Source: Pseudomonadota bacterium
GTDB taxonomy: Bacteria; Pseudomonadota; Alphaproteobacteria; Paracaedibacterales; CAIOTO01
Length of the DNA: 64,000 nucleotides
Assembly (NCBI GenBank): GCA_040387495.1
Contig: JAZKDQ010000006.1
Span: forward strand, 49,391-113,390
Reading direction: 5' to 3'
The notes beneath the pieces were generated by a model that did no database searches, was not told the DNA's origin, and worked only from the letters and a program-made list of their open reading frames with translations. The translations under genes were made by a program, and so were the position numbers. Numbering within the stretch: the first letter of the stretch is position 1; the number at the start of each line of letters is the position of its first letter. Shown here in pieces: positions 1,200-37,951 of the stretch.

Positions 1200-1596
1200 A
1201 ATTGAGTTACCCGTCAAATCATTTCACAAACTACTTCAGCCCGGCACAGCATAATGATGGGAATTTTATGTATTTAATTCCTCTGGATGGTCAATTTTTT
1301 TCATAAAAAGAGATGAGCTAAAAAGCTTGTCTAACAGGCATGTCGCACCCATTCACATAAGACAGCAAGGTCAAATTATCAAAAGCTGAGCATTATAGCT
1401 GCCTATATAATTTTCAAACGAGCCTTCGATAGAGAATTCATAAAAATAGAATAAAATACATGAATAAACAAAATCAATTTGTAAATGAGAAAATATATAT
1501 TATTTTTCAAACAACAACACTTGATTTTATTAGAGACCATCCCCATATTGTAGAATGTGGAATGAGAATGCATCACTAATAAGGAGAAAGCTCTAC

Positions 1597-3552
1597 ATGA
1601 TCAAATTGTTACTCACATTAATTTCTGTCGCTGTTTATATTACATCACCACTTTGTGCTGCTGCTGATTCCGAACTTGAAGACTACCAGAACCACTTAGA
1701 ACTTTGGAAAACTGAAATAGAACCAGATCAAACACGGGTAGAACAAGCCGGCGCAATTATTGCGCAAGGCGCAAATCTAGCAGGACAAATAGGGGGCGGA
1801 TGTTATCATTGGTATAATGCAAGTACTAAAGAAAAAGCCGAGTTATGCTCTGAATTCGGCTTACAAATGTTGCGTTCAATTATTTCTGCACCTGTTGATT
1901 TTATAAACCATAGTCCATGCACGTTAACTTTAATTGCATTTAGCCATTTATATAAAGCACAAAATAAATTATCAGCATCAGAGTTTGCATATACTTTTTT
2001 ATGTATTCAAACGCTTATCTTTGTGGTCAATATCTTCGAAAGATTTTGCTCAGTAACAGAGCGAATAGATTTTTTCTCTCAATGGAATCCTATTGATGAA
2101 GATAAATATTCAGCACTTCATGCAAGTGATGTTAATGCTAATGCAAACCCTCTCGTCAAAGGATTTTCTGTTGATACTAATAAGAAAACATTATCTTTAC
2201 ATAAACGGAGTGTCATTAAAAAAATTGCAAGCTTAAAATTTAAAAGAACTATCTTACTAAACAAAGATAACAAAGCTCATCAAGCGGTGCTTGATTCAGC
2301 CTCTCACCGTAGAGAAACTGGAAAGTTAAGAGTCATCGGTCAGCCTATAAATTATATTTCATGTGTAATGCCATTCATGGAAAACCGCTATCCAAATATC
2401 TTTATTATATTCCAAAAAATAAATGGACAGGCACACACTGATTTAGATAATACATTTATTATTGATTTAGAACGAAAAATTAATAACATTGGAAATCCAG
2501 CATTTGTTACTGCACCTAATTTTAGCCAACTAAGTCCCACTGAAAAAGATAATTTAACGACAGAATTAAAAACACGTATATACAATGCACCTACTGAATA
2601 TCAACGTTATTTAGCTAAAAACTGGACTGCATTTATCACTGGTCTAGATAAGGATTGTTCTCAAACAAATGTAAAAAAATGCCTAACTGAGTTTATCGAT
2701 ACCGAGCTTGATACGGCTTACTATGATACCCATACAGACGAAATTAACATCATGAGAACAAAATATAAAGTTCGCAACTTAACCGAGGCAGAGAAAAAAA
2801 GAACGGCGCGTAAACATTCCACACTATTACGTGGACGAAACTATTTTACGGATTTGAGCACGAATGAAGAGACATCTGTTCGTATAGATGGGCAAAAAGA
2901 AAAAGAATTAAAGCTAATTGAAACATATAATCGTGATGTTCTTGTTGATCTATTCTTAAATCAATGCCACAAAATGGTAGAGAAAGCAGAAGCTGACGCC
3001 GACATCACTGAGTGGGAGCGTGTTGCAGAAAATACTGATGATGTCCCTGTTGCGGATTATATTCATAAGTATTTAAGTATGTTAAAAATAGATGAAAATG
3101 ACATCGAAGCAAAAGTTTGTAATTTTATGAATAAACATCTTTTTCTCAGTGAAGATATTTCTCGTGAATATACTTTTGATTATAGTAACAAATTACAATT
3201 TTTACGCCACTTATTTGAAGATGACATGAATAACATCCAGTTGGGTGCAGATACCATAGCGTTTCAAGAGCTTATTGATCAAAAAAGTTTGTCAAATCAA
3301 GGTATTGGATTTGAAGAGTTGAAGAGGGAATATGCGCAAAAGAATCAAGAGGACCAATCACCAATAGGATTATGGAATTTTATTCAGGGAAAGAAGCGAG
3401 ATCTTTATTTGCAAGTGTCTGAAGAAGACTTTATGGATGCTTATTTAAATGAGGTGCTTTATCACCAAAGTTTTTCAGATGAACTTGCTAATCCATTACT
3501 GTATGAGTACAAAAATTCTCTTGATAGTGTCCCTTTTATTATTGAAGATTAA
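1597..3552 (+). CDS. Hypothetical secreted protein, 651 aa, no recognisable domain
   Basis: ORF track 1555..3552. Preferred start is ATG 1597, preceded by AAGGAG at 1581-1586. The N-terminus MIKLLLTLISVAVYITSPLCAAADS looks like a signal peptide. The gene is visibly AT-richer than neighbouring core genes. Confidence 0.6.
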   Translation: MIKLLLTLISVAVYITSPLCAAADSELEDYQNHLELWKTEIEPDQTRVEQAGAIIAQGANLAGQIGGGCYHWYNASTKEKAELCSEFGLQMLRSIISAPVDFINHSPCTLTLIAFSHLYKAQNKLSASEFAYTFLCIQTLIFVVNIFERFCSVTERIDFFSQWNPIDEDKYSALHASDVNANANPLVKGFSVDTNKKTLSLHKRSVIKKIASLKFKRTILLNKDNKAHQAVLDSASHRRETGKLRVIGQPINYISCVMPFMENRYPNIFIIFQKINGQAHTDLDNTFIIDLERKINNIGNPAFVTAPNFSQLSPTEKDNLTTELKTRIYNAPTEYQRYLAKNWTAFITGLDKDCSQTNVKKCLTEFIDTELDTAYYDTHTDEINIMRTKYKVRNLTEAEKKRTARKHSTLLRGRNYFTDLSTNEETSVRIDGQKEKELKLIETYNRDVLVDLFLNQCHKMVEKAEADADITEWERVAENTDDVPVADYIHKYLSMLKIDENDIEAKVCNFMNKHLFLSEDISREYTFDYSNKLQFLRHLFEDDMNNIQLGADTIAFQELIDQKSLSNQGIGFEELKREYAQKNQEDQSPIGLWNFIQGKKRDLYLQVSEEDFMDAYLNEVLYHQSFSDELANPLLYEYKNSLDSVPFIIED

Positions 3553-4311: not shown

Positions 4312-6606
4312 TTACCCCTTCAAATACGATAGCAAACTCAATTCGTGGCTTCCAATCGTTACCCCTAAGGTTCCAGTTGTTTCTTCATGCAAGAATTGTT
4401 TATACACCATAAAGTTTTCTAACACGCGCTGTACGTAATTTCGTGTTTCCGCATATGGAATGCATTCGATCCAGTGCACAATATCAACATCTGGTAGCCG
4501 AGGGTCTCCATAATCCCTGATCCATTCGCTCACAGGCTTTGGTCCTGCGTTATAGGCTGCAAGACTAAGAACTAAACTACCATTATAGTTGTCGAGCAGA
4601 CTCTCAATATGTGACGTTCCAAGTGTAATGTTTTGATTTTTTTCATACAAATTCATTTTTGAAGAAAGATTGATTCCAAACCGTTTAATTGCACGTGCTT
4701 CTTCCTTAGCTGTTGCTGGAGTTAATTGCATCATCCCGCGCGCATTAGCTGAACTAAGTGCATATTCATCAAATCCACTTTCACGACGAATAATAGCATG
4801 TGAAAGCGGCATCAAAAGGCTTCCAAATCGACTTTTAGGTACGATGCGACTCACAGTAGATTTTCTTGTTTCTGCACGCAGCAGCGGATAAGCTACTCTA
4901 AATGTCATATGCTTTTTCTTAGCAAGTAATATTGCATAGGCTTCGCCTTTTTTCTCTTTTGCCAAATCAAATACTTGTCGCTGAAATGCAAGCGTTTGAC
5001 TGATTTTAAGCAACGCAAAAAAGAAAGAATCGCAATTGTGACCTTTTCTTGCCTCTGAAACAGACCTGATAACCTGCACGAGTTCTAAATTCTCGAAAGC
5101 CGCTTTTTCTGCTGGAGGCACAGTTACTTCCAACACCGCCTTAAAGGACACATTTTTAATTATTGGGTGTTGATCTTTTAGCTTAGCATTGGCAATTTGG
5201 CTCGCAGCCATTTGACCATAAAATGTTGTCGAATAGGTACTTGCTTCAAGAAACGCTTTTTTTGCTTCACTTAGTTGATTAAGTTTCAAATAAGATTCCC
5301 CAATCCAATAATGCACCCGAGATTTACTAATTGCTTCCTTTACAACGGTTTCAATACCTTTAAAAACACCTAAAGCCTTTTCTGGCTTATTCGCATAATT
5401 AAGGGCAAGCCACCCTGTCATGCAATGTGCATGTGCGCATTCTTCACCGCACCGTATTTCTCCAAAATGTTTTTCTTTATTAATCTTAAAACCATGCTTC
5501 TTAACTAACGTATATGCATCTATTGGACGCTTTGCATCCATCATTCGGCGCGCAAGCAGATTCCTTTCTTTCCAGAAAACGCTCGCATGTTGCTCTTCAT
5601 CTAGAAATGTATTGTTAATAAAAAGCTGAACCGCAGCTTCTGTTCCCTCAGGTGTTTTGAGCTGCCGATAATATCGGATTAATTCAAAAATAACGCCTTC
5701 ATTATTACCAGCTTTACTAATAAGTTTTTGCGCTCGCGCAGCCGCATCTGATTTTTTAGCCAACAAATCAAGGCGCAATGAAATACGTTCTTTTTCATCC
5801 GGAGTTAAATACCCAAGCAAAGCCGTTGCATCTCTACTATGCTTTGTATAAAGTAAATTGCTTGCATGTAAATATGCCCATAAAAAAGGTAAGTATTGTT
5901 TATAATTGACAAGCTGAACAATAATATCGGTTGGTATTGGAAAAGAAACGAGCAACTTATAGAACTCTTGCTTTGCTTGATCAATTTTCCCTTTTACAAG
6001 CAATGCCTTCGCGTAATAAAACTGCCCCTTTCCAGTTTTTGGGTGATAGCGATCAAAAAATTCAATCACTTGACCTGCAGCCACAGGATCCGCACCTGGG
6101 TCTTCCAATACATTCTCAGCTTTTTCACATAGCACTGATTGTTTTGGCCAGGTAGGATGCTGCTCAATGAATGTGACTATTTCAATAAATGTAGCCGTCC
6201 CTAACAATAAATGTCTCCATTGATCAAAAAAAGCTTTTGCATCAATTCGCACATTTGCTATTGGTGTTGCTATTGCTGACTGAGCTGTAGGCACAGGCAC
6301 TGCTGTTGGTGCCGACGCGACTGGTATTAACGGCGTTATTGCGGGCACAACTACTGACGATGCTTTATTTGAATTTTCTGGTGCAACCAGTGCTAGTGTA
6401 CTCGAAAGTATGGCGGGCACATTTATTTGTGTTATAGTGGGCGTCATAAATGTTGGTGCACTTTGCTTGATGGCGGCAGGGGCCACAACTTGCGCTCCTT
6501 GTGCAGCTGGCATTACTGACGTCATAATATCAGCTTTAGCCATTACACAAAACCAACACATAATAAAGAGATAACAAAAAAACAAACGAAGCAACACATC
6601 TTTCAA
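4312..6606 (-). CDS. slt: Soluble lytic murein transglycosylase (Slt70-like) with an Ala/Pro/Val-rich N-terminal extension
   Basis: 764-aa ORF. The C-terminal SLT domain carries the motifs ESGFD...GMMQLTPATA...AYNAGP. A long superhelical middle region is typical of Slt70. Confidence 0.85.
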   Translation of the reverse strand: MKDVLLRLFFCYLFIMCWFCVMAKADIMTSVMPAAQGAQVVAPAAIKQSAPTFMTPTITQINVPAILSSTLALVAPENSNKASSVVVPAITPLIPVASAPTAVPVPTAQSAIATPIANVRIDAKAFFDQWRHLLLGTATFIEIVTFIEQHPTWPKQSVLCEKAENVLEDPGADPVAAGQVIEFFDRYHPKTGKGQFYYAKALLVKGKIDQAKQEFYKLLVSFPIPTDIIVQLVNYKQYLPFLWAYLHASNLLYTKHSRDATALLGYLTPDEKERISLRLDLLAKKSDAAARAQKLISKAGNNEGVIFELIRYYRQLKTPEGTEAAVQLFINNTFLDEEQHASVFWKERNLLARRMMDAKRPIDAYTLVKKHGFKINKEKHFGEIRCGEECAHAHCMTGWLALNYANKPEKALGVFKGIETVVKEAISKSRVHYWIGESYLKLNQLSEAKKAFLEASTYSTTFYGQMAASQIANAKLKDQHPIIKNVSFKAVLEVTVPPAEKAAFENLELVQVIRSVSEARKGHNCDSFFFALLKISQTLAFQRQVFDLAKEKKGEAYAILLAKKKHMTFRVAYPLLRAETRKSTVSRIVPKSRFGSLLMPLSHAIIRRESGFDEYALSSANARGMMQLTPATAKEEARAIKRFGINLSSKMNLYEKNQNITLGTSHIESLLDNYNGSLVLSLAAYNAGPKPVSEWIRDYGDPRLPDVDIVHWIECIPYAETRNYVQRVLENFMVYKQFLHEETTGTLGVTIGSHELSLLSYLKG

Positions 6607-7520: not shown

Positions 7521-8012
7521 ATGAGTAAAGACAAAGACACAGACAATTACAAAGTTGTCGCACAAAACAAACGTGCACGCTTTGACTATGATCTAATCGA
7601 AATTATCGAGGCTGGGATCATGCTGAAAGGCAGTGAAGTTAAGTCTTTACGACTTGGCAAGAGCAGCATTAACGAAGCCTATATTGGCGAAATGACAGAA
7701 GAAGGTGCGGATCATTGTGGCCTTTATTTGATCAATGCAACCATATCCGAATATGCACAAGCAAATAGTTTTGGTCACGCCGAAAAACGTCCGCGATGTC
7801 TGCTTGTACGAAAACGGCAAATGAATAAGTTTTTAGGTTCCATCCGAAAAAAAGGAATGACTGTTGTTCCATTGCGCCTTTATTTCAATGGAAAAGGCAT
7901 TGCAAAGTTAGAAATTGCGTTGGCAAAAGGACGCCAAACACATGACAAACGCGCCGCCATTAAAGACCGTGATTGGGGCCGTGAAAAAGCACGTGTACTA
8001 AAGGGAGAATAA
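7521..8012 (+). CDS. smpB: SsrA-binding protein
   Basis: 163 aa. It has NKRARFDY...GSEVKSLR...AYI and a basic C-terminal tail, as in canonical SmpB. Confidence 0.9.
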   Translation: MSKDKDTDNYKVVAQNKRARFDYDLIEIIEAGIMLKGSEVKSLRLGKSSINEAYIGEMTEEGADHCGLYLINATISEYAQANSFGHAEKRPRCLLVRKRQMNKFLGSIRKKGMTVVPLRLYFNGKGIAKLEIALAKGRQTHDKRAAIKDRDWGREKARVLKGE

Positions 8013-8017
8013 GAAAC

Positions 8018-8879
8018 GCCCATTCAACATTGAAACACACCACTAGGAAACTCCTGGTTAATGACTTAAGAATCTCTCTGCTGGTGTTTCAAAATTTAAA
8101 CTAAAATGTGGTCTATTATTGAGTCCTTTCTCAACTTCTATAACCTGATCTTGCGTTAGCATAGTGAAGTTTGTTCCTTTTGGAAACTATTGCCGAACAA
8201 GACCATTTGTATGTTCATTCAAGCCACGTTCCCATGCATGATATGGTTTAGCAAAATAGAACAGTGCATTTAACGATTTGCTCACCTGCTCATGATCTGA
8301 AAACTCTTTCCCATTATCCGCTGTTAACGTATGAATCATTGCATGAATATGCTTTAAACGTCGAATGATGACTTCGCTAGCCGCGTGTGCCGTTGCTCTT
8401 GGAACAAGTTCAAGTCCAGCATGTTTGTCTTTTCAAAGCAAACGATAGATGCTTTTATGGCTGATCTTAATGCCGCTCTTTTAAGAGTCTGCCTGAAATT
8501 TGCACAGGACTTGATTGAGAATGGGTTAAGTGCCATTTGATTTTTTCAATGACTCCTGGCGTCAGTTTTCGTTTAACGCCACTGGCCTTGCTTTTCCTGT
8601 TTAATGTCTCTGCGTGGGCGTGTTGATAACGATAACCTCGTTTACCCTGGTTACGATTAATTTCTCATATGATGGTGGATGGCAGACCTGTAATTGCTTT
8701 GCTATGAAACGTTTTGACTTTCTACTTTTCAAAAGTCCATAAATCTGCATCTTTCATCTTGGATCAAATGCGTGCCGATTGCTCGATTCATGACAATCTC
8801 CTTTTTGCGATAGAGATCAGCTTAAATACACTTGACTTTTTTGTTATCCCCTAGTGGTGCGTTTCAATGTTGAATGGGC
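8018..8879 (-). mobile_element. Degenerate IS30-family insertion sequence (internally deleted, frameshifted), termini intact
   Basis: 30-bp terminal inverted repeats GCCCATTCAACATTGAAAC[A/G]CACCACTAGG lie at 8018-8047 and 8850-8879 (1 mismatch). GAAAC is present on both outer flanks (8013-8017, 8880-8884). The interior encodes IS30-type transposase pieces. Confidence 0.8.
8058..8791 (-). pseudogene. IS30-family transposase pseudogene
   Basis: Reverse-strand translation across several frames gives ...ISREINRNQGKRGYRYQHA...KLTPGVIEKIKWHL...SPVQISGRL... and ...TADNGKEFSDHEQVSKSLNALFYFAKPYHAWERGLNEHTNGLVRQ*FPKGTNF...NNRP.... It has multiple frameshifts and stops. The segment that should carry the first catalytic D is missing. 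Confidence 0.75.
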
Positions 8880-9515: not shown

Positions 9516-10447
9516 ACTAGGGAGGCACCAGAGCCAATGGCATTCGGTTAGTATACAACTCCAACTTTTTGTCCCTTTTTCCCGCACTTTTTCTCTGGTT
9601 TATAAGATCGCCTTGGAAAGGATCTGCCCGTTCGAATCTTTTGTCGTACATTAAGAATCATGCCAATAATTTTAGCTGTCCAGTCTTTTATTTCTTCATA
9701 CGTAGCAAGAAATAGATTATCTACATAGCGTCCTACAACCATGAGACAATTTTAAAAATTAATATTAAACATAGATGCTGGATTGAAGAACTTATAGAAA
9801 TTAGCCTGGTCACACTTTTCTTTATCTTCTTGATTCATTGGAGGCAAACTATCTTGAGCATCATATTCAAAAAATCGTGACAACTTAATAAACCTTGAGG
9901 ATAATGTCGGCGTTCTTCGTCATAAATTTTGAATCCGAAGTTTACAAGTTCATGAGGGATATTAATTCGTGATCCATCTGTCGCATAGACGCGATGTCCT
10001 CGCCAAAGAGGAAGTGAACGTTTTGTATCCCAATTTTTTAACACGTCTTTGTTAATTTTCTTGAAAATATCTTCGGATACTTTTTGGCGAGCCTCACAAA
10101 AAGAAGATGCGGCTACAGGCTTTGTCTGCGGCAAAACTATGTCTTTTTCAGCACATCTATCCCAGAACTCAGTCAGATTTATAGTAAGCCCTCGGTTTTT
10201 GTCGCTTAGGATTATTTTAAAAATCATAAGGATAATTATTTTACTGTTTAAAACACGATTTCGCTTTTTCCAACTGGCATCATAGTCGACACAAACTTTA
10301 TCTATAATATCCCTAACGCTTGACCAATAATCTGTTATTCTTTCTTGTTCAATCATAGAAGTATACTCCCATTTACATGAATTCATAAGAAGTATAACAT
10401 GTTTCTTTTGGTAACCGAATGCCATTGCTTGCAGAAGACCCCCCTCA
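9516..10447 (-). mobile_element. Remnant of an IS4-like element bounded by imperfect inverted repeats of about 35 bp
   Basis: CCAATGGCATTCGGTTA at 9534-9550 and its reverse complement TAACCGAATGCCATTG at 10412-10427. Weaker similarity continues outward on both sides, ending in CT[A/G]AGGG. The repeats enclose a truncated DDE transposase ORF. Confidence 0.55.
9835..10356 (-). pseudogene. Truncated IS4-family (DDE) transposase, N-terminal part only
   Basis: From M at 10356: MIEQERITDYW...NRVLNSKIIILMIFKIILSDKNRGL...SSFCEARQKVSEDIFKKIN...WRGHRVYATDGSRINIP. This is the typical IS4-type N-terminal region up to the first catalytic D (xxDGS). The ORF stops shortly after that. The 64-aa ORF at 9548..9742 may be a further degenerate piece. 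Confidence 0.65.
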
Positions 10448-10583
10448 GGGACAGATGATAAAGTGATGTCATAAAAAACCAAGTTAAAGATATTTTCCCT
10501 AGCTTGGCTAATGTATTTAAAAATGTGTTGTTCTAAAATAGCCCTGGCTTTTGTTTACCTTCCGATATGTGACCCAGGCAATT

Positions 10584-13500
10584 TTATGGGCGCATTTTAT
10601 ATAGACTAGCTTTAGACCATAAATTTGTGCCCGTTATTTCTTCAGGACCTTGTATGATTTTGGGACTCGTTGAATCTGAAAGGTCAATGAATATTGGTTC
10701 TTTTTTGTGAAAATCAGGATATTCTTTAAAACAAACTACAGAGTTGCTCATTTGACCATATGCATCGAGACATGAAAATGCTCTACCTAAGATTTTTTTC
10801 GCTCCATCCTTATGCGCTACTAATTGCCAAAATTCACTAACATAGCCATAAGATGACACATGATAACCTTTTTGTGATCCAGGTATATATTCAATCATAA
10901 GACTTCCCGAACCCTGAAAAGAAGAATCTGAGGGGAAACTTATACTTCCCAACTTTCGCTTTAAGGCAGGAATTGGGTCACCAAAATCCTTAGCATCATA
11001 TCGAAACGCACTTTCTGACGTTGTGGGCATGTTAAGATTTTTTCCCTGTTCAATATCCATGGCATCTCTCTGCGCCGCAGCACCTCTGGCTTCAGCTTCA
11101 TCCTCTTGCATGAACTGCCGCTGAAGAGTAGCTGTTAAATTACTTTGTATTTTTTTATAACTTTCACTTGTTTTATCGGGATGTGCATCAAGAGCCTCTT
11201 TAAAAAGCTCTATGGCACGCGGAAAATCGCGGACAACACCATTCGTTCCATTACGAAAAGCATCTGCATATTTATTAATCATATATGATAAACTATTTTG
11301 TATTACCTTATAATAACTGTTCGTTTTATCTGGGTATAAATAAAGACCTTCTTTGAAGAGTTTAATCGCACGCGGATAATCGCGAATAATATCATTCATT
11401 TGAAGAAATAAATCGGTCGCATATCCATGAAGGGTAGTTGCTAACTTACTTTGTATTTTCTTATAACTTTCACTCGTTTTATCGGGATGTACATTAAGAA
11501 CCTCTTTAAAAAGGTCTATGGCACGCGGAAAATTGCGGGTAATATAAACGTCATTCGTTCCATTACAACATTCAAGCGCATATGTAATAAGGGTATTTTC
11601 TAAATTACTTTGCAACTTCTTATAAAATTCCTTTGTTTTATCGGGAACCATATCAAGTGCTTCTTTAAAAAGCTCTATGGCACGCAGCAAATCGCGGACA
11701 ACATCGTTTGTTCCATTACGAAAATCATTTGCATATTCATTAAGTATAGTTGACAAACTAATTTGTATGTTTTTATAATTTTCACTCGTTTTATCTGGAT
11801 GTACATCAAGGGCTTCTTTAAAAAGTTCTATCGCACGTGGCAAATCGCGGGTACAACCATTCGTTTTATGAAATAAATGGCCCGCATATGTATTGAGGGT
11901 ATTTGCTAAATTACTTTGCATTCCCTTATAAGATTCCTCCGTTTTATCGGGATGTACATCAAGAGCCTCTTTAAAAAGTTCTATCGCACGCGGCAAATCG
12001 CGGGTACAACCATTCGGTCCATAAAATAAATGATGGCCCGCATATGTATTAAGGTAAAGCACTAAATTACTTTGCATTTCCTTATAAAATTCCTCCGTTT
12101 TATCGGGATGTACATCAAGAGCCTCTTTAAAAAGTTCAATCGCACGCGGCAAATCGCGGGTACAACCATTCGGTCCATGAAATAAATGATGGCCCGCATA
12201 TGCATTAAGGGAAATTGCTAAATTATTTTGTATTATTTTATAACTTTCACTCGTTTTATCGGGATGTACATCAAGAGCCTCTTTAAAAAGCTCTATGGCA
12301 CCCGGCAAATTGCGGACAATACCATTTGTTCCATTACGAAGATCATTTGCACATTCATTAAGTATAGTTGATAAATTAATTTTCAGCTTCTTATAATGCG
12401 CGCTCGTTTTTTCGGGATGTACATCAAGAACCTCTTTAAAAAACTCTATGGCACGTGGCAAATTGCGGACAATACCATTTGTTCCATTACGAAGATCATT
12501 TGCATATTCATTAAGTATAGTTGATAAATTAATTTTCAGCTTCTTATAAGGCGCGCTCGTTTTATCGGGATGTACATCAAGAACCTCTTTAAAAAACTCT
12601 ATGGCACGCGGCAAATTGCGGACAATACCATTTGTTCCATTACGAACATTATTTGCATATTCATTAAGTATAGTTGACAAAGTAATTTGGATATTTTTGT
12701 AAGAAATGTCAGTTTTATTGGGGTATATATCAATGGATTCTTTACAGATTATAGCAGCACGCAGCAAATCGCGGGTAGAACCATTGGTTCTATTAAATAA
12801 ATCGGTCGCATATGTATTAAGAGTACCTGCTAATTTTTTTTGTATAGTTTTATAAAGCGCGCTCGTTTTATCGGGATTTACATCAAGGGCTTCTTTAAAA
12901 AGTTCAATCGCACGCGGCAAATCGGGGGCAATACCATTTACTACATTACGAAGTTCTTTTGCATATTCATTAAGTATATTTGATAAATTAATTTGCATAG
13001 TTTCATAAGAATTTTCAGTTTTATCGGGATGTACATCAAGGGCTTCTTTAAAAATTTCAATCGCACGCGGCAAATCGCGGACAACACCATTTGTTCCATT
13101 GCCGAAATCAACTGCATATTTATTAAGTATAACTGCTAATTCACTTTGTATAGCTTCATAAGAAAAACTCTTTTTGTTGGGGTCTAAAGGATGAATTTTA
13201 TTGGGGTGCACATCAAGAGCTTCCTTATACAGTTCAATCGCACGCAGCGAATCACGAACAGGATTATTCTTGGCCTCTATACGCAATGCCTGCCATAGCC
13301 CTTTTGCATGTCCTTCGGCTAGTTTTTCATTAGTTACATTTAAAGAAAGACAAGCAAAACTAAGGTTATATATTTCACTCATGTGATCATTAGAAATAAT
13401 GCTATCTGAATTTAAAAGTAAATGTTCTAATTCTGATGGCACAGTGCGTTTAAACACAAGTAAAGGTAAAGGCATACCATCTACATCATGACCACGTGCC

Positions 13501-14462
13501 CGAAGTGTTGGGTTATAATAATAAGCAATAACCGCCTTTGTTATATCAGATTCAGAAGTTTTCACCCCACGTGAAGAGGTGGAATAAAGGGGATAGGACT
13601 CTGGATTATCAAATATATCTTTTACAAAAGCCACTCTTATCTCATTTTCCCTATTGAGATATTGTTGTTTTTCATCAAGTGTCAAGGTAACAACGTAAGA
13701 CCAGCTACTTAGCCCGTCGATTTCCCAACCTTTGTAATTTCCACCAGAAATAGCCAACTGGTCGTAAACTTTAAACAAATTCAATTTTGGCGCACAAAGA
13801 TCAAAAATATCTCCTGAAAGCCTGATGAGCTTTGGGTTTTGTATAAGCACATTGCGTACGGCACCCGTAAATGATGCCACAGTCTTAGCAGACCATCCAT
13901 GAGCTGTCATATTTTTAATAACAGAATCAACAAACGCTTCTGAAACTTCCGTATCTGCAGATTGCTGTAACCATAAATCAGCAAAATCTTCATTATCAAG
14001 TGCTGTTTGTGCTAGTGCGTCAATTGCCATAATTGATGCAAGTTGCGGTATTTCTGTAAGACCGTCGTTGGAGTCAAAATTAGGAATATAACGATTAATC
14101 ATACCACCCTTACCAAGACATGGCTGACCTGGGAAGGTCTGACGTGTTTGAATAACGGAATTAACAAGAAGATCTAGTGATTGACCTGATGGTAATGTCA
14201 CCTCTGTGCAAATTTTCATAATGCAACTAGAAATCTCAGCGGTTAATTCTTTAAGTGCCGAATAGTCATTAAAAATGGCCTGTTCACGACGCTTTTCAAG
14301 ATCACGTAAATCATGCAAGACTGAATCTGAGCTACGTACATCTAAGGATGTTGATGATTGGGCTACTTTAGAGGCTAGCTCACTTGCGAATGCGACGGTA
14401 AATGGAGCAAGTATTGCAAGCGTCAGCGCTGTAGATGCATAAAGGTATTTTTTGATTTTCAT
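10584..14462 (-). CDS. Large secreted repeat protein: signal peptide, N-terminal domain of about 400 aa, 14 x 51-aa TPR-like repeats, C-terminal domain of about 175 aa
   Basis: ORF track 10584..14510. Preferred start is ATG 14462 (MKIKKYLYASTALTLAILAPFTVAFASE). The repeat consensus is [VT]RDLPRAIELFKEALDVHPDKTSESYKKIQSNLxxxLNxYAxxxxNGTNG. The flanking domains are unrecognisable. Confidence 0.8.
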   Translation of the reverse strand: MKIKKYLYASTALTLAILAPFTVAFASELASKVAQSSTSLDVRSSDSVLHDLRDLEKRREQAIFNDYSALKELTAEISSCIMKICTEVTLPSGQSLDLLVNSVIQTRQTFPGQPCLGKGGMINRYIPNFDSNDGLTEIPQLASIMAIDALAQTALDNEDFADLWLQQSADTEVSEAFVDSVIKNMTAHGWSAKTVASFTGAVRNVLIQNPKLIRLSGDIFDLCAPKLNLFKVYDQLAISGGNYKGWEIDGLSSWSYVVTLTLDEKQQYLNRENEIRVAFVKDIFDNPESYPLYSTSSRGVKTSESDITKAVIAYYYNPTLRARGHDVDGMPLPLLVFKRTVPSELEHLLLNSDSIISNDHMSEIYNLSFACLSLNVTNEKLAEGHAKGLWQALRIEAKNNPVRDSLRAIELYKEALDVHPNKIHPLDPNKKSFSYEAIQSELAVILNKYAVDFGNGTNGVVRDLPRAIEIFKEALDVHPDKTENSYETMQINLSNILNEYAKELRNVVNGIAPDLPRAIELFKEALDVNPDKTSALYKTIQKKLAGTLNTYATDLFNRTNGSTRDLLRAAIICKESIDIYPNKTDISYKNIQITLSTILNEYANNVRNGTNGIVRNLPRAIEFFKEVLDVHPDKTSAPYKKLKINLSTILNEYANDLRNGTNGIVRNLPRAIEFFKEVLDVHPEKTSAHYKKLKINLSTILNECANDLRNGTNGIVRNLPGAIELFKEALDVHPDKTSESYKIIQNNLAISLNAYAGHHLFHGPNGCTRDLPRAIELFKEALDVHPDKTEEFYKEMQSNLVLYLNTYAGHHLFYGPNGCTRDLPRAIELFKEALDVHPDKTEESYKGMQSNLANTLNTYAGHLFHKTNGCTRDLPRAIELFKEALDVHPDKTSENYKNIQISLSTILNEYANDFRNGTNDVVRDLLRAIELFKEALDMVPDKTKEFYKKLQSNLENTLITYALECCNGTNDVYITRNFPRAIDLFKEVLNVHPDKTSESYKKIQSKLATTLHGYATDLFLQMNDIIRDYPRAIKLFKEGLYLYPDKTNSYYKVIQNSLSYMINKYADAFRNGTNGVVRDFPRAIELFKEALDAHPDKTSESYKKIQSNLTATLQRQFMQEDEAEARGAAAQRDAMDIEQGKNLNMPTTSESAFRYDAKDFGDPIPALKRKLGSISFPSDSSFQGSGSLMIEYIPGSQKGYHVSSYGYVSEFWQLVAHKDGAKKILGRAFSCLDAYGQMSNSVVCFKEYPDFHKKEPIFIDLSDSTSPKIIQGPEEITGTNLWSKASLYKMRP
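11110..13270 (-). repeat. Intragenic tandem repeat, 14 units, period mostly 153 bp
   Basis: The motif (C/T)ATGGCACGCGG / AATCGCACGCGG (reverse complement of the PRAIE codons) recurs near 11211, 11361, 11515, 11675, 11830, 11983, 12137, 12293, 12447, 12600, 12753, 12906, 13059 and 13240. Confidence 0.85.
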
Positions 14463-15119
14463 TTTTTTTCTCTTCTTTATTTTTATTATGTATGCGGCTG
14501 GAAGTACCATTGAGGGCTCTGTCGCAAATTTTTAGTAGAAGTAATTTTATTTTGAAAAGTTGTTTCTAAGTATAAAAAATTTGAGATTTTCAGCTCATTT
14601 TCTTTAAAGAGCATACTTACTTTTATAAAATTACTTAAAATTTCAGGATGCGATAGAACTGCCGCATTGCTTCTTGCTACGCAGCGGCAAGTTCATTCCC
14701 ATCATTCATACAAAAGCCGTTTCCCACAATAAATGTTTTTGTTAAAAATAATGCTAATTTTCTCATAATTATATTTCTTTTCGACATATTCGATTTTTCT
14801 ATACTTATTATATATACATGAAACAATAAATATTCAAGGAGGGAAATGAAAAAATATTTTAGCCGGATCATATGCCCTCTTTTTCGATGATTTTGGATAA
14901 AATAGCAATACCTATACTCCGTCGTCACTGTGAATCGGTTCTGAGCGCTGTAGTAGCTCATCCTTAACCAATATTCTAAAAAATGAATGTAAAAAGTTTG
15001 GCAGCTAGGGCAGTATTACAATCAGTAAGACGCATGAGAGTCAATAGTTTACTTCTAGTCAGTGTTTTTCTATTACTTCTTGAGGCATTGAAATTAAGAA
15101 AAATCTGACTGTAGGAAAT

Positions 15120-15300
15120 GTGAAATTCCTTAACCGAACGCCATTGGCGCCAGAGCACCCTCAGCGCCTTTGACGAGGTTTTCTTCATTGCGAAACTTCG
15201 TAGAGGGTGTGGCAATCTCTCTCGTGTGTATTCCTCGTGTTTGACACGTGGATCTAGATCCCCGGATCACGTCCAGGGATGACACGGGAGGGGAACATAA
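15120..15300. repeat. Composite repeat copy C: solo IS4-like end plus hairpin modules, inverted relative to copy A
   Basis: TAACCGAACGCCATTGG at 15131-15147 matches the IR core at 9534-9550 / 10412-10427. The reverse complement of 15226-15300 carries CCACGTG-TCAAA-CACGAGG and a GTCATCCC...GGGGATC hairpin. Confidence 0.5.
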
Positions 15301-15339: not shown

Positions 15340-16767
15340 CTACCCAACCATTTGCTTAAGTGTATCCGCAGACGGCGTGCCAAACTCACGTAGCAGCGTA
15401 ATGCTAATGCGGCGATTTGACTCAGCAAAGGGATCTTCTTTCACAAACGGGTCTGTTGCCTCTTTCCCCATTACAGACTCGAACCGTTTCGCATCAACAT
15501 TAAATTCTTCCAGTGTGCGACGCGTCGCATTTGCGCGGTCTGCTGACAACTCCCAATTGCTATACTTACGTGTCCCCACAAAGGGGTGTGCATCTGTATG
15601 ACCCGATATCACGAGCGCATTCGGCATCTTATCAATTAAATTCGCGACCGTCCTAAGCAGCTGTTTTGTAAGCACTGTCATGGAACTACTGCCAGATGCA
15701 AACATTGATCGCTTATCCTTATCTATCAGTTGGATGCGAAGTCCCTCTGGTCTATTCTCAATGATAATATGTGGCATCAACCCTTTTAATTCCGGGTTTT
15801 TCTGAACAAGATTCTTAATTGACGCAGCCACTTCTTTTAGCTTCTCATTCTCGGCCAACTGAAGTTTTTTGATGGCTTCTCGCGTTTCTCTTGACTCAGC
15901 AGCTGCTTTCTCAATTGCTTTTTGCTGCTCCATCTTTTTATCAGATAATGCACTGGAAATAGAGCGTTCATACGTTGTAGCAGCCATGTTATTTTTAATT
16001 GTGTTTGCCGCTTGGTTGAGCGTTTTTTCTTCCATTGCTTTTTTAGACACTTGGGTTTTTGCAGTTTTAATTTCGTGCAGATCTACTTTAATTATTTTTT
16101 CAATAGTCTCATTTATTTTTTTTACTTCTATTTTAGCTGAATCAACTTTAGTAGGCGCAGCTTTAGGCTGTTCTTTTTTAACCTGTTCTGCTTTAGAGGG
16201 ATCAGCTTTAGTCACACCATTCTTTTGCGTCTTGCTCAAAGCTTGCTCTTGTTTCATCTTTAATGGCTCCACGACAACTTGCTCTTTTGCAGCCGATACA
16301 GTTGATTTTTCGACAGACTTGATTGAATCATTCTTTTTTATTTTTTCACTATTCGTAGGGTCAACCTTATTTTTTTTAGCTGCATTCAAAGCATCCTTAC
16401 TAACGTCCTTTTTATCTTGAAATTCATCTTGATGTTTGCTTTTTACTACATCGACTTCAATTTCAGTGCTTTTTGCACGTTCCTCTGTACTTTTCCCGCT
16501 GCTATTATTTGGATTGCTTAAATTAACACCCCCCAACAATCCAGCGCTTCCATTTTGGGTTTGTGTGTTAATAAAACTTGGCGAGAAATAATCGGCGATC
16601 CCTTTACGTTGCTCTTCGCTTGTAACGTTAATCAACCACATAAGCAAAAAAAAGGCCATCATTGCTGTTACAAAATCTGCGTATGCAATCTTCCAACTAC
16701 CACCATGTGCTTCATGTGGTTTTTTCTTACCCCGCTTTTTAATAATAATAATAGGTTTATTATCCAT
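15340..16767 (-). CDS. motB: Flagellar motor stator protein MotB with an unusually long Lys/Glu-rich linker
   Basis: 475 aa. The N-terminus WKIAYADFVTAMMAFFLLMWL is the MotB TM/plug region. The C-terminus has the OmpA-like motif ISGHTD...NWELSADRANATRR. About 250 aa of K/E/A/S-rich sequence lies between them. Confidence 0.85.
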   Translation of the reverse strand: MDNKPIIIIKKRGKKKPHEAHGGSWKIAYADFVTAMMAFFLLMWLINVTSEEQRKGIADYFSPSFINTQTQNGSAGLLGGVNLSNPNNSSGKSTEERAKSTEIEVDVVKSKHQDEFQDKKDVSKDALNAAKKNKVDPTNSEKIKKNDSIKSVEKSTVSAAKEQVVVEPLKMKQEQALSKTQKNGVTKADPSKAEQVKKEQPKAAPTKVDSAKIEVKKINETIEKIIKVDLHEIKTAKTQVSKKAMEEKTLNQAANTIKNNMAATTYERSISSALSDKKMEQQKAIEKAAAESRETREAIKKLQLAENEKLKEVAASIKNLVQKNPELKGLMPHIIIENRPEGLRIQLIDKDKRSMFASGSSSMTVLTKQLLRTVANLIDKMPNALVISGHTDAHPFVGTRKYSNWELSADRANATRRTLEEFNVDAKRFESVMGKEATDPFVKEDPFAESNRRISITLLREFGTPSADTLKQMVG

Positions 16768-16769
16768 AA

Positions 16770-17636
16770 CTAAACATCACCTAGCTGTTGCGTAGCTATT
16801 TCCAATTCATCAAATGTTGGCCGCTGCTCTTCTTCCAATGATTTACGGGCAAACTCAACGATGATAATTGGTGCACATCCATTTAAATACGCAATGATAC
16901 TTGATTTAATGCATAAAATATATTTCTGATCAGACTCGACCACACCTTTAAGCGACTGAGCCATTGGCCCTATAATTCCATACGAAATCAAAACACCTGC
17001 GAAGGTTCCAACCAAGGCACCACCAATTAAGTGACCGAGTATTTCAGGGGGTTGACTAATAGACCCCATCGTATGAATCACACCAAGCACTGCTGCAACA
17101 ATTCCGAGTGCTGGCGTACCGTCTGCCATTTTCTCAATTGCCGTCACATCGCAATGATCCTCATGCATTATTACGTCTATTTCTTCCATCATAAGATCTT
17201 CCATTTGATGGACATTTTCGCTACCCATTGTCAAAAGACGTAAATGATCGCACAAAAATGTTAACGCAGCATGATTTCCTAAGAATGAAGGGAAACGTTG
17301 AAAAATAGTAGATTCATTAGGCGATTCAACATGTGCTTCAAGAGACAGCATGCCCTTTGACTTTGCCAATTTAAAAATACAAAACAAAAGACACAACAAT
17401 TGCAAATATTCTTTCTTATGATAAGTCGGCCCTGCTGCAATACGCTTTATATTACCAACTGTTCGACCTACAACACTTGATGAATTACCAATGGTATAAG
17501 CACCAAATGCAGCACCAAGAATAATCAAAAATTCAAACGGTTGCCATAAAACAGCAAGGTGCCCTCCATTAGCCACATAACCAAATATTACGCTTCCTAA
17601 AACAATAAGTAACCCAATGAGTAATTTCATAATCAT
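16770..17636 (-). CDS. motA: Flagellar motor stator protein MotA
   Basis: 288 aa, four TM segments, with the conserved C-terminal half ...PALGIVAAVLGVIHTM...LGHLIGGALVGTFAGVLISYG.... Its stop lies 2 nt upstream of the motB start. Confidence 0.85.
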   Translation of the reverse strand: MIMKLLIGLLIVLGSVIFGYVANGGHLAVLWQPFEFLIILGAAFGAYTIGNSSSVVGRTVGNIKRIAAGPTYHKKEYLQLLCLLFCIFKLAKSKGMLSLEAHVESPNESTIFQRFPSFLGNHAALTFLCDHLRLLTMGSENVHQMEDLMMEEIDVIMHEDHCDVTAIEKMADGTPALGIVAAVLGVIHTMGSISQPPEILGHLIGGALVGTFAGVLISYGIIGPMAQSLKGVVESDQKYILCIKSSIIAYLNGCAPIIIVEFARKSLEEEQRPTFDELEIATQQLGDV

Positions 17637-17933
17637 TCATGATATTAATTTCTTAATTTTAGTGTACGTACCATTTATTAGGGATTCGTTAATTTTAAAG
17701 GGCTTTAGGAGAAATTAATGTGAGATCAAAAATTTAATAGATTGCAGGTAAATTAACACCAAGAATACGATACATGCGTCATTGCGACCAGTTATTAGCC
17801 TATATTGAAATGATAATATAAAAAATAAATATTACCTTCAATTAACACCAAAATCTTTTGACTTTATTAATTAATTTAAGATAAAATTATATCTACATTG
17901 CTATATGTTTTATTTAACTGGAAGGAAACTCAA

Positions 17934-19628
17934 ATGCGCATTTCCCTAACACAAACAATCCTGCTCAGCACAGCCTTACTTACAATGAATTTTCCACTTT
18001 CAGCAATGGAGGATGGAGTTAATGGTAAAGATGGTGCCAATAAAGTCTCAACAACTGCAGCCGCTAAAGAGCAGACTGACCCATCACTACAAGAACCAAC
18101 CGCAAATATTATAATCCCAGTTAACAGTCCATATCAGGAAAAGGCAGAAAAACTTGCAAGATCTTTTTTTAATGATGAAGAAGAAGTAAAAGCATCATTA
18201 ACTATTTTTTGCCTAATAGCAGAACTTCTTGATAATAAAGATGCAGGTACTTCCCTACTTTCTTCTGACAATAGCTCAGTTTCAACAATAGTAAGTTTAA
18301 ACGTCCTAAATAACAGCACAGTAAGAGAAGCTGGAACTACAGAATCACTTGTTCTTTCCAATCAATTATCAACAGACACACAAAGTTTTATTTCAGGAAA
18401 TTTATTGTTAATTGCTGAACACCACAATCATCGACATCCTGACTTTAATGAAATTTACACTGTTTTAGCGGATGACTTTCTTAGCACTACACTTCCAAAT
18501 AATGCTCAAGGGAAAGTCTCTGGCACTCAAGAAACAACAGAACGGCTTACGAAAATTCATATGTTTTTCAAAGGATTGATTGATCAAACAAATTCAAAGA
18601 TACAAGAGCATACTTCATCTTTAGCAACTGCTGATACTCCTACGACAGAATCTGCAGCGCAAGTATTAATACAAGAATACAAAGCTCAAAATAATGAATT
18701 AAAAGAACGTCTGTTTAACTTATTAGAACATTTTTCAAATACTCGAAATTTTATTATACAAACAGATAAAACGATCTATAGCAAGATGAAGGTCATAAAA
18801 AACACAGCATCCCCTGACCTGTCATTTAAGAGTATAGGAGAAAAAACTAGCACGATCAGCAAGAATTTAGAAAGCGACATCTCTTATTTAAAAAAATTAA
18901 AAAGAGATTCCGAAACTCTTCTTCACACCCTATATGACTATGATCGTACCGATAGAGATTTGTCGGCAACCCCAAATCTTTTTGCAAAAGGTGTAGTTCT
19001 ATTCCAGGCAGCACTTACATCTGCTGCTGGCAATATTCTTAATCTAACAGAAGGACGAAAATTACGTTATGAGCGCACAGGTTATTCTACCTTGCCGCTT
19101 ACAATCAGCATATCATCAACATTTGTTTCTGAGAAATGTGAAGGTGCTACCGATCAAGCAACACACGAGCGCTATATAGAATATATAAAATCCATGATCA
19201 AACCCACACCAGCTTTATTTGATGCTATTAAAGCTAAACGTATTAAATTTGTTGGGCAAATAACTCCAGAAACAGAAAACAAAACTATTTCTAGTGCGAA
19301 TATTTGCTCATCAACTGCAAATTCAAAATTACTAGATGAAGCAAATGGAGAAAAAAGTGAGGAAAAAGATGAAATTGATGCACCAAGTGATGCGTTAGAC
19401 ACCCCTCCTAATGTTAAAGAAGATCTAAATGCTGCCAGCTTTAGTGAAGCTGGATCAGACGTTGATTGGTCTGCAGAACAGGCGGGCATTGTCACCATCC
19501 GACAGGAGTTTCCTGGTAATAATTACCAGATTGATTCTTGTGATGTAGATCCAATTGAATTAGCTAGTATTGATGAACTATATAGAATTAAACCAAATTT
19601 TAAATCCTTCGATCTTATAAAAAAATAA
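17934..19628 (+). CDS. Hypothetical secreted protein, 564 aa, acidic C-terminal region
   Basis: ORF track 17898..19628. Preferred start is ATG 17934 after GGAAGG. The signal-like N-terminus is MRISLTQTILLSTALLTMNFPLSAMEDG. No recognisable domain. A strong terminator follows. Confidence 0.6.
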   Translation: MRISLTQTILLSTALLTMNFPLSAMEDGVNGKDGANKVSTTAAAKEQTDPSLQEPTANIIIPVNSPYQEKAEKLARSFFNDEEEVKASLTIFCLIAELLDNKDAGTSLLSSDNSSVSTIVSLNVLNNSTVREAGTTESLVLSNQLSTDTQSFISGNLLLIAEHHNHRHPDFNEIYTVLADDFLSTTLPNNAQGKVSGTQETTERLTKIHMFFKGLIDQTNSKIQEHTSSLATADTPTTESAAQVLIQEYKAQNNELKERLFNLLEHFSNTRNFIIQTDKTIYSKMKVIKNTASPDLSFKSIGEKTSTISKNLESDISYLKKLKRDSETLLHTLYDYDRTDRDLSATPNLFAKGVVLFQAALTSAAGNILNLTEGRKLRYERTGYSTLPLTISISSTFVSEKCEGATDQATHERYIEYIKSMIKPTPALFDAIKAKRIKFVGQITPETENKTISSANICSSTANSKLLDEANGEKSEEKDEIDAPSDALDTPPNVKEDLNAASFSEAGSDVDWSAEQAGIVTIRQEFPGNNYQIDSCDVDPIELASIDELYRIKPNFKSFDLIKK

Positions 19629-36643: not shown

Positions 36644-37951
36644 ATGCGCTTAACCTCTATAAAAATTCTGCCGCTGCTATTTACAATTTTTTGTAATGAC
36701 ATTTGCAATGCATCAACACAAGAAATTTCAAAAGATCTTGCGGTTTTGGCAAAACAATTTACAGGACGTTTTTTAAAGAATGGTTATTCACAATCTGACA
36801 TTTACGATGCATTGATTTACCTCAGGAAGCAAACTGAAATGAACATTTATGTTTACACATTTAAAAACAAAACATGGACAATGATTCCTTTTAGTCCTCA
36901 AAAAGACTGTTCAACAAACTATCCACAATCTCGATTATTACTTTCATGGCTGAATGAAAACGCAACAAAAAAGATAAAAGAAGGTTTTACCTTCTGTAGC
37001 GTCCCTCAAGAACCAATCCATGACAATAGTTGGCTGGGAGAAGAACGCCAAATAAAAATAAGGCATTTATTTGATACATGTCCAGTTTTAGCAACATGCA
37101 CTCATCCTGAGATTTTATGGACAGAAAATGCCGTACTTATTCCAGATTATTTTATTTTAAATGAAAACTATTATTCAAATTGTAATGAAATAATAAAAGA
37201 AAACAATACTTCTTTTGTGAATAGAAAACCAGTCATTTTCTTTCGCGGAGCAATAACAGGTGCCTATTCTCAGATACAATATGACATGGAAAGTATAAAA
37301 AAAGATGATCGTTTAGTGTTATTTGGCATGTCAAAAGAAAAAGAATTTATTGATGCAAAAATAACTGCTGACTATTGGCTGGATAACGAAGGAAAGGCAA
37401 CCGTAGATTTTCTAAACTGGTACAAACACAATTTAACCAGCAGAAAAAGTGCTCCCGTAGATTTTATAGCGCATGCCCAAAATAAGTATCTTATATCGAT
37501 TGATGGATTCGGAGCAGCATGGTCACGTGTCCCCTATATTTTATTTACAGGATCTGTCTTATTATTACGCGCAGATTGCAAACAATATTTTTATAAATTA
37601 CTCACGCCGAAGAAAACGCATGTTGAGATAAATCGCTATTTAACAAACATTGAAGAAGTTTACACATATCTTGAACAAAATCCTAAAGTTGCAGAATCTA
37701 TTGCCAATAACGGCAAAGCTTTTGCTGAAAAATACTTGATAAAAGACGCGATTGATACATATCTAACACATGTTATTTATGATTTAAATGAGGCATACTA
37801 TGAGCCCACGGGATGGATGAACAAAACTATTCTTGCATTCAAAAAAATAAGATTTCAAATCGCAGAAATCAAATATGCATCAAAAAGATATTTCAGAAAA
37901 CATTTAAAACCGTATTTTATGAGATTAAAATCAATAACCCATAATATTTAA
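36644..37951 (+). CDS. Glycosyltransferase family 90 (CAP10 / protein O-glucosyltransferase-like) with N-terminal signal sequence
   Basis: 435 aa. RKPVIFFRGAITG..., KYLISIDGFGAAWSRVPYILFTGSVLLL..., YFYKLLTPKKTHVEINRYLTNIEEVYTYLEQNPKVAESIANNGKAFAEKYL aligns by eye with the C-terminal catalytic region of POGLUT1/KDELC/CAP10 proteins. The gene is AT-rich. Confidence 0.75.
   Translation: MRLTSIKILPLLFTIFCNDICNASTQEISKDLAVLAKQFTGRFLKNGYSQSDIYDALIYLRKQTEMNIYVYTFKNKTWTMIPFSPQKDCSTNYPQSRLLLSWLNENATKKIKEGFTFCSVPQEPIHDNSWLGEERQIKIRHLFDTCPVLATCTHPEILWTENAVLIPDYFILNENYYSNCNEIIKENNTSFVNRKPVIFFRGAITGAYSQIQYDMESIKKDDRLVLFGMSKEKEFIDAKITADYWLDNEGKATVDFLNWYKHNLTSRKSAPVDFIAHAQNKYLISIDGFGAAWSRVPYILFTGSVLLLRADCKQYFYKLLTPKKTHVEINRYLTNIEEVYTYLEQNPKVAESIANNGKAFAEKYLIKDAIDTYLTHVIYDLNEAYYEPTGWMNKTILAFKKIRFQIAEIKYASKRYFRKHLKPYFMRLKSITHNI

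Follow-up and report, generated by a model that had tools for sequence, protein, structure and literature searches.

What kind of protein is encoded by the longest open reading frame (ORF) within a 64,000-nucleotide stretch of a Pseudomonadota genome (contig JAZKDQ010000006.1; this entire 64-kb stretch is called the window here), and what might the bacterium use it for? The ORF, located at positions 10584-14462 of the minus strand, specifies a protein of 1292 amino acids, the target protein of this study; the second-longest ORF of the window encodes MutS (864 amino acids). A first, sequence-only reading had described the product as a secreted protein in which 14 tandem TPR-like repeats of 51 residues lie between two unrecognisable domains, and had suggested a three-helix repeat variant outside any named family. 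Our comparisons indicate instead, and with good support, that the repeat is a Sel1-like unit lengthened from 44 to 51 residues and not a new repeat class, and they place the protein in an unnamed family defined by its N-terminal domain. This identity, comprising both family homology and Sel1 ancestry, is well supported; the function of the target protein we infer.

The gene and its repeat array

The target protein is composed of a Sec-type leader, a 375-residue N-terminal region, 14 tandem units and a 179-residue tail, and these parts are positioned in the window as follows:

10584-14462, minus strand: complete gene, 1292 codons plus stop, from the ORF list
14385-14462, minus strand: predicted Sec signal peptide, residues 1-26 (MKIKKYLYASTALTLAILAPFTVAFA then SE), from sequence reading and a hydropathy heuristic
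13260-14384, minus strand: N-terminal domain that defines the family, residues 27-401, chiefly alpha-helical plus a small beta sheet, from phmmer and AlphaFold2
11124-13259, minus strand: 14 expanded Sel1-like units, residues 402-1113, from unit alignment, family hidden Markov model (HMM), hhalign and AlphaFold2
10584-11123, minus strand: C-terminal tail, residues 1114-1292 plus stop, no detected relative

The reading frame begins with MKIKKYLY and runs uninterrupted through all 1292 codons; the possible disruption of the ORF that had been raised as a concern is thus not what we find. Its status as the largest ORF of the window is borne out by the ORF list, and its length by an identical 1292-residue NCBI entry ('MAG: hypothetical protein V4544_03080 [Pseudomonadota bacterium]'). 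An alternative in-frame ATG at 14510, 16 codons upstream, would yield a protein of 1308 amino acids. The DNA of the gene has a GC content of about 36%, at which we estimate that about 7% of random codons would be stops, and an open frame of 1292 codons therefore excludes a chance origin. The N-terminus, consisting of MKIKK, an 18-residue hydrophobic core and an AFA/SE junction, looks like a textbook Sec leader, in agreement with the signal peptide proposed earlier; this call rests on inspection by eye and a hydropathy heuristic. A hydrophobic leader also opens the complete homologues in the family.

Tandem Repeats Finder detects a period of 153 nucleotides with 13.2 copies (75% matches, score 1444), along with higher-order periods of 306 and 465 nucleotides (scores 1735 and 1794, respectively). 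At the protein level, the count of 14 units holds, with starts at residues 402, 461, 512 and onward to 1077; the first unit spans 59 residues, the others 51-53, and the final one is only half a unit. Our alignment of these units reproduces the repeat consensus that had been read from the translation, VRDLPRAIELFKEALDVHPDKTSESYKxIQxNLxxxLNxYAxxLxNGTNGx. Each unit can be divided into helix B (LPRAIELFKEALDV), a turn (HPDKT), a long helix A (SESYKKIQSNLSTILNEYANDLR) and a loop (NGTNGVVRD). Between units 5 and 6, identity reaches 94% for the protein and 97% for the DNA sequence; it is 75-89% among units 7-9, and the greatest divergence is found in the outer units, a gradient that, as far as identities between units can tell, fits the usual pattern of internal duplication. 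Among the regular units, hardly any change is seen in helix B and the turn, and the variable positions are concentrated in and around helix A. In solenoids of the TPR and Sel1-like kind, the ligand groove is lined by this helix, and the variability seen here would, by analogy, fit the diversification of a binding surface. No paralogue of the target gene was found within the window.

An unnamed family with Sel1-type repeats

The relatives of the target protein were found by an exhaustive phmmer (HMMER) search with residues 27-401, with proteins clustered at 50% identity. This search returned 35 cluster representatives with E-values from 1e-191 to 2e-4 (26 with E <1e-10), all metagenomic or derived from metagenome-assembled genomes (MAGs); the 34 distant ones (E 6e-56 to 2e-4) share 25-42% identity in the N-domain. 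Most members begin with a hydrophobic leader and an N-domain of about 340 residues, followed by tandem repeats with a spacing of exactly 44 residues in 47 of 58 successive pairs examined among the relatives. These repeats number 1-12, and the proteins usually stop 4-12 residues past the last one. The target protein has the leader, the homologous N-domain and Sel1-type repeats directly after it. A survey of repeat number had been recommended at the outset, and it proved informative: two alleles of the P0004 cluster that are >90% identical, P0038 and P0039, measure 744 and 788 amino acids and carry 5 and 6 repeats, differing by one 44-residue unit. At the sequence level, this pair shows directly that copy number varies within the family.

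Other searches added little to this set. Word-index searches with the whole protein, the N-terminal region and the tail retrieved only the target itself, one TPR protein and P0003, and the sub-sequence queries missed even their parent protein; neither the protein nor alignments of the repeat and of the N-domain retrieved any relative when used to scan contigs from genomes and metagenomes. P0003 (385 amino acids) is the sole close relative and is 85-87% identical to the N-terminal region. Its contig, L001, shares 93% DNA identity with window positions 13330-15146; the similarity ends at codon 378, and a DDE_Tnp_1 transposase follows (E 1.9e-11; L001 2513-3372). Hence, either this allele is interrupted by an insertion sequence (IS), or the assembly was broken at the IS or at the repeats.

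The 44-residue family repeat, with the consensus EKDIPKAIELCREAADLGFEDAKRNLPIALNNYAVWLFNGTNGI, is readily recognised as Sel1-like. Three tandem copies of the consensus score 79.7 bits against Pfam Sel1 over positions 1-35 of 36, and the family members reach 50-142 bits (cut-off 30.7) with no other Pfam family significant. Against PDB sequences, the family repeat profile matches 6ok3, 6deh (which we take to be Legionella LpnE), EsiB and HcpB/C with E-values from 1e-13 to 0.16, and it also matches MotX weakly (E about 1e-3). The connection to the target repeat is provided by hhalign: an alignment of the 14 target units with 44 family units has a probability of 98.9% (E 3.4e-17) and covers all 44 columns, with a single difference, an insertion of seven residues that immediately follows helix B in the target. 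Likewise, an HMM of the 44-residue unit matches every target unit over positions 2-44. The whole target protein scores 71.3 bits against Pfam Sel1 (PF08238; cut-off 30.7), a value summed from partial matches in which one stretch alone passes. Contrary to the earlier view that the repeat belongs to no named family, the unit is thus homologous to repeats that Pfam calls Sel1.

The insertion replaces the Sel1 'LG' by 'ALDVHPDKT', akin to the TPR turn 'ALELDPNN', and the loop NGTNGVVRD retains the G-x-x-G-V-x-x-D signature of Sel1. The SMART Sel1 consensus comprises A3, L7, G8, Y11, G14, G16, D20, A24, A31, A32 and G35 (quoted in PMC10868440). When these positions are mapped by hand via the family alignment, G14, G16, D20, A24 and A31 are retained, L7, G8 and Y11 are replaced by the similarly sized Y, A and L, and A3, A32 and G35 are lost (now I/T, L and H). 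The resemblance of one helix and turn to TPRs that had been noticed is real: Pfam TPR_1 (PF00515) matches the unit at profile positions 16-33 only, and among PDB sequences the unit profile finds its best matches in consensus-TPR designs, aligned over unit positions 3-26. Both observations are explained by the VHPDKT-type insertion. A canonical TPR is a 34-residue unit matched over the whole profile; the target offers a half-motif match and a period of 51. Sel1-like repeats, in turn, measure 36-44 residues (Mittl & Schneider-Brachert, 2007, quoted in PMC10868440), so that the target units of 51-53 residues (59 in the first) lie beyond their range as well, as had been pointed out, whereas the relatives' units of 44 residues do not. 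Pfam also reports DUF7125, Cpf1_PI-like, Rtt106_N and Glyoxalase; these scores add up partial matches to the repeated helix, and we treat them as spurious.

It was this period, beyond the published TPR and Sel1-like ranges, that had suggested a new three-helix repeat class unrelated to either family, and two further facts might be read in the same way: single Pfam matches span half a repeat, and a phmmer search of the repeat region against PDB sequences gave no match. We modeled residues 664-1292 with AlphaFold2 from the single sequence. In the model, each unit consists of a 14-residue helix and one of about 23 residues, the loops between the helices are 6 and 9 residues long, and the predicted local distance difference test (pLDDT) values are 70-90; the third helix is absent from the predicted units. 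Foldseek matches this model best to TPR solenoids (LGN/Pins, SPY, OGT, Ctr9), and the Sel1-like repeat protein Hrd3 appears at rank 38. The target units are hence predicted to form a solenoid of paired antiparallel helices. The end-to-end profile alignment with the 44-residue Sel1 repeat, with its one insertion, and the recognition of 14 of 14 units by the family repeat HMM argue in the same direction; a new three-helix class is already contradicted by these data, and we give it hardly any credence.

The N-terminal domain is a real and conserved unnamed domain, common to the small metagenomic family and devoid of a detectable structural relative. AlphaFold2, supplied with an alignment of 32 sequences, models it with a pLDDT of 86.3 and a predicted template modeling score of 0.86. 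A Foldseek search with this model found no significant match (best E 0.46 in the PDB and 0.14 in BFVD), and profile searches against PDB sequences, Pfam and NCBIfam were empty. When all 32 N-domains were compared with NCBIfam and Pfam, only single matches at chance level emerged, including 2CompART at E 0.059. No match was found in PHROGs and PADLOC, nor by tblastn of two N-domains against PLSDB. Many of the conserved positions are hydrophobic or structural (AID148, F220, AP225, G-Y-GW246), and a polar motif, SIxRTRHxF, reads SVIQTRQTF in the target. From its sequence, the domain appears to lack a convincing set of catalytic residues. We also considered an ADP-ribosyltransferase, for which an R-S-E reading could be constructed (conserved R107, and an STS motif around S296), and dropped the idea in view of the largely helical domain and the lack of a supporting fold match.

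Two local peculiarities of the domain should be mentioned. Over residues 260-295 (about 13580-13680), the target and P0003 diverge sharply across about 40 residues, including a six-residue indel, and they are about 95% identical on either side; either a patch acquired by recombination or a hypervariable loop might explain this. In P0006, an extra module of about 200 residues (residues ~210-413, motif RHASTDEKKAILQSVMGTE) is placed inside the N-domain, and by eye an N-terminal stretch of P0008 (residues ~40-200) resembles it. This looks like a second, mobile sub-domain.

The tail sets the target protein apart. Most family members end about 10 residues past the last repeat (4-12 residues), a pattern that is broken by the target with its tail of 179-200 residues. 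In the AlphaFold2 model, the capping helix is long and reaches to about residue 1139, and the remaining 150 or so residues have pLDDT values below 35 and lack a confident structure. No relative of the tail was found among the family proteins or the fetched loci, and there was no match in Pfam, NCBIfam, PDB, PHROG or PADLOC; the word-index search found no homologue either, a weak negative since its sub-sequence queries missed the parent protein (P0001) too. The GC content at third codon positions of the tail resembles that of the rest of the gene, and the estimated chance of 179 stop-free codons in DNA of this composition is about 2e-6, from which we conclude that the tail is coding sequence, be it native or captured. 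Hence, of the two unrecognisable domains described previously, both ends indeed belong to no named family, but the N-domain is not unique, as it recurs in 35 clusters, and the tail may not be a domain.

Function and genomic setting

We consider it reasonably probable that the target is a Sec-exported modular protein of an unnamed accessory family which serves as a protein-binding scaffold at the host interface or on the bacterial surface. The plan of the family comprises a leader, a conserved N-domain of about 340 residues and 1-12 Sel1-like repeats of 44 residues. In the target, each unit would have gained seven residues after helix B, thereby exchanging 'LG' for a 'VHPDKT' turn and lengthening helix A; the longer unit would have been multiplied to 14 copies via internal duplication, and the 179-residue tail would have been added. 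Subsequent to export and leader cleavage, the 14-unit alpha-solenoid would act as the protein-binding scaffold with the variable surface of helix A as its ligand face, and the N-domain would provide a family-specific partner or activity. The surface or host interface of a protist-associated bacterium is favored over a purely housekeeping periplasmic role. LpnE, EnhC and LceB, leader-bearing Sel1-like repeat proteins from intracellular bacteria, have a role in host interaction (PMC10868440), and the genomes of Paracaedibacter-like endosymbionts contain genes for secreted TPR and ANK proteins as well as for a type VI secretion system (PMC8163844).

Several points weigh against this proposal. A Sec leader takes a protein only as far as the periplasm, and within the window the gene is not linked to any secretion system. 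The target deviates from SIxRTRHxF, the best-conserved motif of the N-domain, by Q105 and Q108, and if this motif is functional, the target copy may be degenerate. The single close relative (P0003 on L001) is cut off at an IS. The repeat model stems from a single-sequence AlphaFold prediction with a mean pLDDT of 65.9, including the unfolded tail, and the taxonomy of the family is based on few loci.

The host of the window is probably a Paracaedibacter-like member of the Holosporales, judging from the sequence of its MutS, which is 87-90% identical to that of three alphaproteobacterial MAGs and 77% identical to that of a 'Candidatus Paracaedibacteraceae' MAG. Members of this group are protist endosymbionts with genomes of about 40% GC (PMC8163844); the window has 40.1% GC and all family loci have 36-40%. 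On limited evidence, we place the family in low-GC Paracaedibacter-like (Holosporales) alphaproteobacteria.

To the left of the target gene lie a CAF17/YgfZ-like gene, a 665-residue ORF, a gene for an SLT-domain lytic transglycosylase (4312-6606), dapA and smpB (7521-8012); beyond its 5' end follow motB and motA (15340-17636) and then mutS, glmS, map, fabH, lnt and argS. The 665-residue ORF (1555-3552, plus strand) and a 576-residue one (17898-19628, plus strand) have no Pfam or NCBIfam match. This setting bears on an alternative in which the target is a periplasmic envelope factor that binds a bacterial partner, as in the EnhC-Slt and ExoR-ExoS pairs or the MotX stator ring. The Sec leader without a linked secretion system, the SLT-domain gene and motA/motB within a few kb, the weak MotX match of the family repeat profile, the proximity of the relative P0018 to genes for PBP1a and an M23 peptidase, and the precedent of EnhC, itself a large leader-bearing Sel1-like repeat protein, all speak for it. 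The neighborhood, however, is not conserved: homology between L001 and the window stops 684 nucleotides upstream of the target gene, and motB is absent from L001; the mutS regions of relatives (L002-L006) are rearranged, and neither motAB nor the target gene was found there; and not one of the family loci is flagellar. The order slt-dapA-smpB is a common housekeeping arrangement, and the vicinity of the SLT-domain gene is explained by this conserved cluster, which the island carrying the target merely abuts. Moreover, several family members reside on plasmid-like contigs, which would be unusual for an envelope housekeeping protein. We therefore regard a periplasmic envelope factor as somewhat unlikely.

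That island, a stretch of 7.3 kb from the end of smpB (8012) to the end of motB (15340), holds the target gene, IS fragments, an ANK remnant and a 139-residue ORF for which no match was found:

8187-8750, minus strand: degraded IS fragments, short ORFs read as IS30-like (integrase-core remnant; rve at 8187-8339, E 0.057, below threshold)
9835-10482, minus strand: degraded IS4-like transposase N-terminal fragment directly downstream of the gene (Nterm_IS4, E 0.027, below threshold)
14703-14915, minus strand: remnant of a secreted ANK gene, promoter region plus signal-peptide start MRKLALFLTKTFIVGNGFCMN, with 72% DNA identity over 214 nucleotides to L043

The IS debris next to smpB that had been reported is consequently real, though its matches are weak. 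The ANK remnant corresponds to L043 14264-14474, the 5' end of a gene for a 408-residue ankyrin-repeat protein (Pfam ANK); a short ORF in it (14677-14790) stops after about 36 codons, and L001 carries the same remnant. Such surroundings could indicate that the target itself is a decaying accessory gene without current function, whose tail was captured through rearrangement. In line with this possibility are the flanking IS fragments and the truncated start of the ANK gene, the interruption of the related L001 allele by a DDE transposase, the altered RTRH motif, and the tail, which lacks relatives and a predicted fold and is atypical of the family. Yet an intact ORF of 3.9 kb at 36% GC and a stop-free tail of 179 codons are both very unlikely without recent selection, the nearly identical unit pair is still in frame, the N-domain models at a pLDDT of 86, and the promoter-proximal 684 nucleotides are 95.6% conserved between the target and L001. 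Decay is in our view very unlikely, and we retain the proposal of an exported scaffold.

No neighbor is conserved among the family loci. P0018 is encoded directly beside the type VI secretion baseplate genes tssF/tssG and near the genes for PBP1a and the M23 peptidase (L039 12588-15367; L040), and two large proteins (808 and 677 residues) without Pfam annotation adjoin it in L039/L040. A type VI secretion link was considered and rejected, as the adjacency to tssF/tssG occurs in only one of 10 family loci; a Sec leader is atypical for cargo of this system. The contigs of P0004 and P0012 carry Rep3 initiators, that of P0004 also ParA and HicAB; P0008 lies near ParA, MucR and an S24 peptidase; and P0042 is followed by another Sel1 protein, with Fic and ANK genes nearby. 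The plasmid-like family contigs (L045, L047, L048, L041) thus feature Rep3, ParA, HicAB, MucR and a SUKH/SMI1 immunity-like gene. In L046, the genes flanking the paralogue P0016 have counterparts in the window with 84-87% amino acid identity, and the equivalent site in the window is without a family gene. From the unconserved neighbors and the varied contigs we conclude that the family is accessory and mobile, at least partly within one lineage. A bolder version of the scaffold proposal would see in the N-domain a new fold whose activity is specific and may be enzymatic or directed at the host. Combined with a tunable arm of Sel1 repeats, the domain would define a new family of mobile secreted effectors, often borne on plasmids and restricted to Paracaedibacter-like protist symbionts, and the 51-residue unit would give the solenoid a structurally distinct geometry, selected to bind a new ligand; we consider this version unlikely.

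Apart from these matters, the window contains a 435-residue ORF (36644-37951, plus strand) with a Glyco_transf_90 match (E 4.7e-16). Glyco_transf_90 is mostly eukaryotic (CAP10 / protein O-glucosyltransferase type), and the ORF may represent a gene of eukaryotic type carried by a symbiont.

Sel1-like and TPR proteins are leading host-interaction candidates of intracellular bacteria, and few of them have a known partner. The target protein does not open a long-standing question; it illustrates how a repeat period can change when one seven-residue insertion is spread through an array by duplication. It also has a lesson for annotation, since a period of 51 residues, beyond the 36-44 range, leaves profile libraries half-blind and Pfam sees fragments. 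The head domain, conserved, confidently modeled, always paired with Sel1-type repeats and placed on variable, sometimes plasmid-like DNA of a symbiont lineage that has received little study, is a reasonable candidate for structural genomics or pull-down work.

Comparison with known systems

When compared with TPR proteins (34 residues, TPR_1, CTPR designs), helix B and the turn of the target (AIELFKEALDVHPDKT) fit positions 16-33 and the consensus-TPR sequence AIEYYQKALELDPNN. Only half of the motif is matched, however; the loop between helices A and B is of the Sel1 type, and the period is 51 and not 34. MotX, a protein of about 210 residues made entirely of repeats, differs in size from the target with its 1292 residues and extra domains, and an adjacency to motAB exists in the window only, as L001 and nine family loci (L039-L048) are without these genes.

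EnhC is a periplasmic protein of about 1200 residues with about 20 repeats, which binds and inhibits the lytic transglycosylase Slt. The target is similar to this Legionella protein in its size, its leader and its long Sel1-like array, and the host of EnhC lives in amoebae. The likeness is one of description, and the slt gene of the window belongs to a housekeeping cluster; we know of no counterpart of the N-domain in EnhC.

With the Sel1-like proteins 6deh, EsiB (4bwr), 6ok3 and Helicobacter HcpB/HcpC, the target shares two-helix units, the G-x-x-G-[IV]-x-x-D loop and an N-terminal leader, and the solenoids of leader-bearing Sel1-like repeat proteins bind proteins (PMC10868440). It departs from them in its unit of 51-53 residues, in the loss of the LG turn (G35) and A32, and in its helix A of about 23 residues; moreover, these proteins are repeats nearly from end to end, whereas the target adds a head of 375 residues and a tail of 179. 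With the members of its own family (P0004-P0037), it has the domain order, homologous repeats and low-GC contigs in common. These relatives carry 1-12 units of 44 residues and end shortly thereafter; the target presents 14 units of 51 residues and a long tail.

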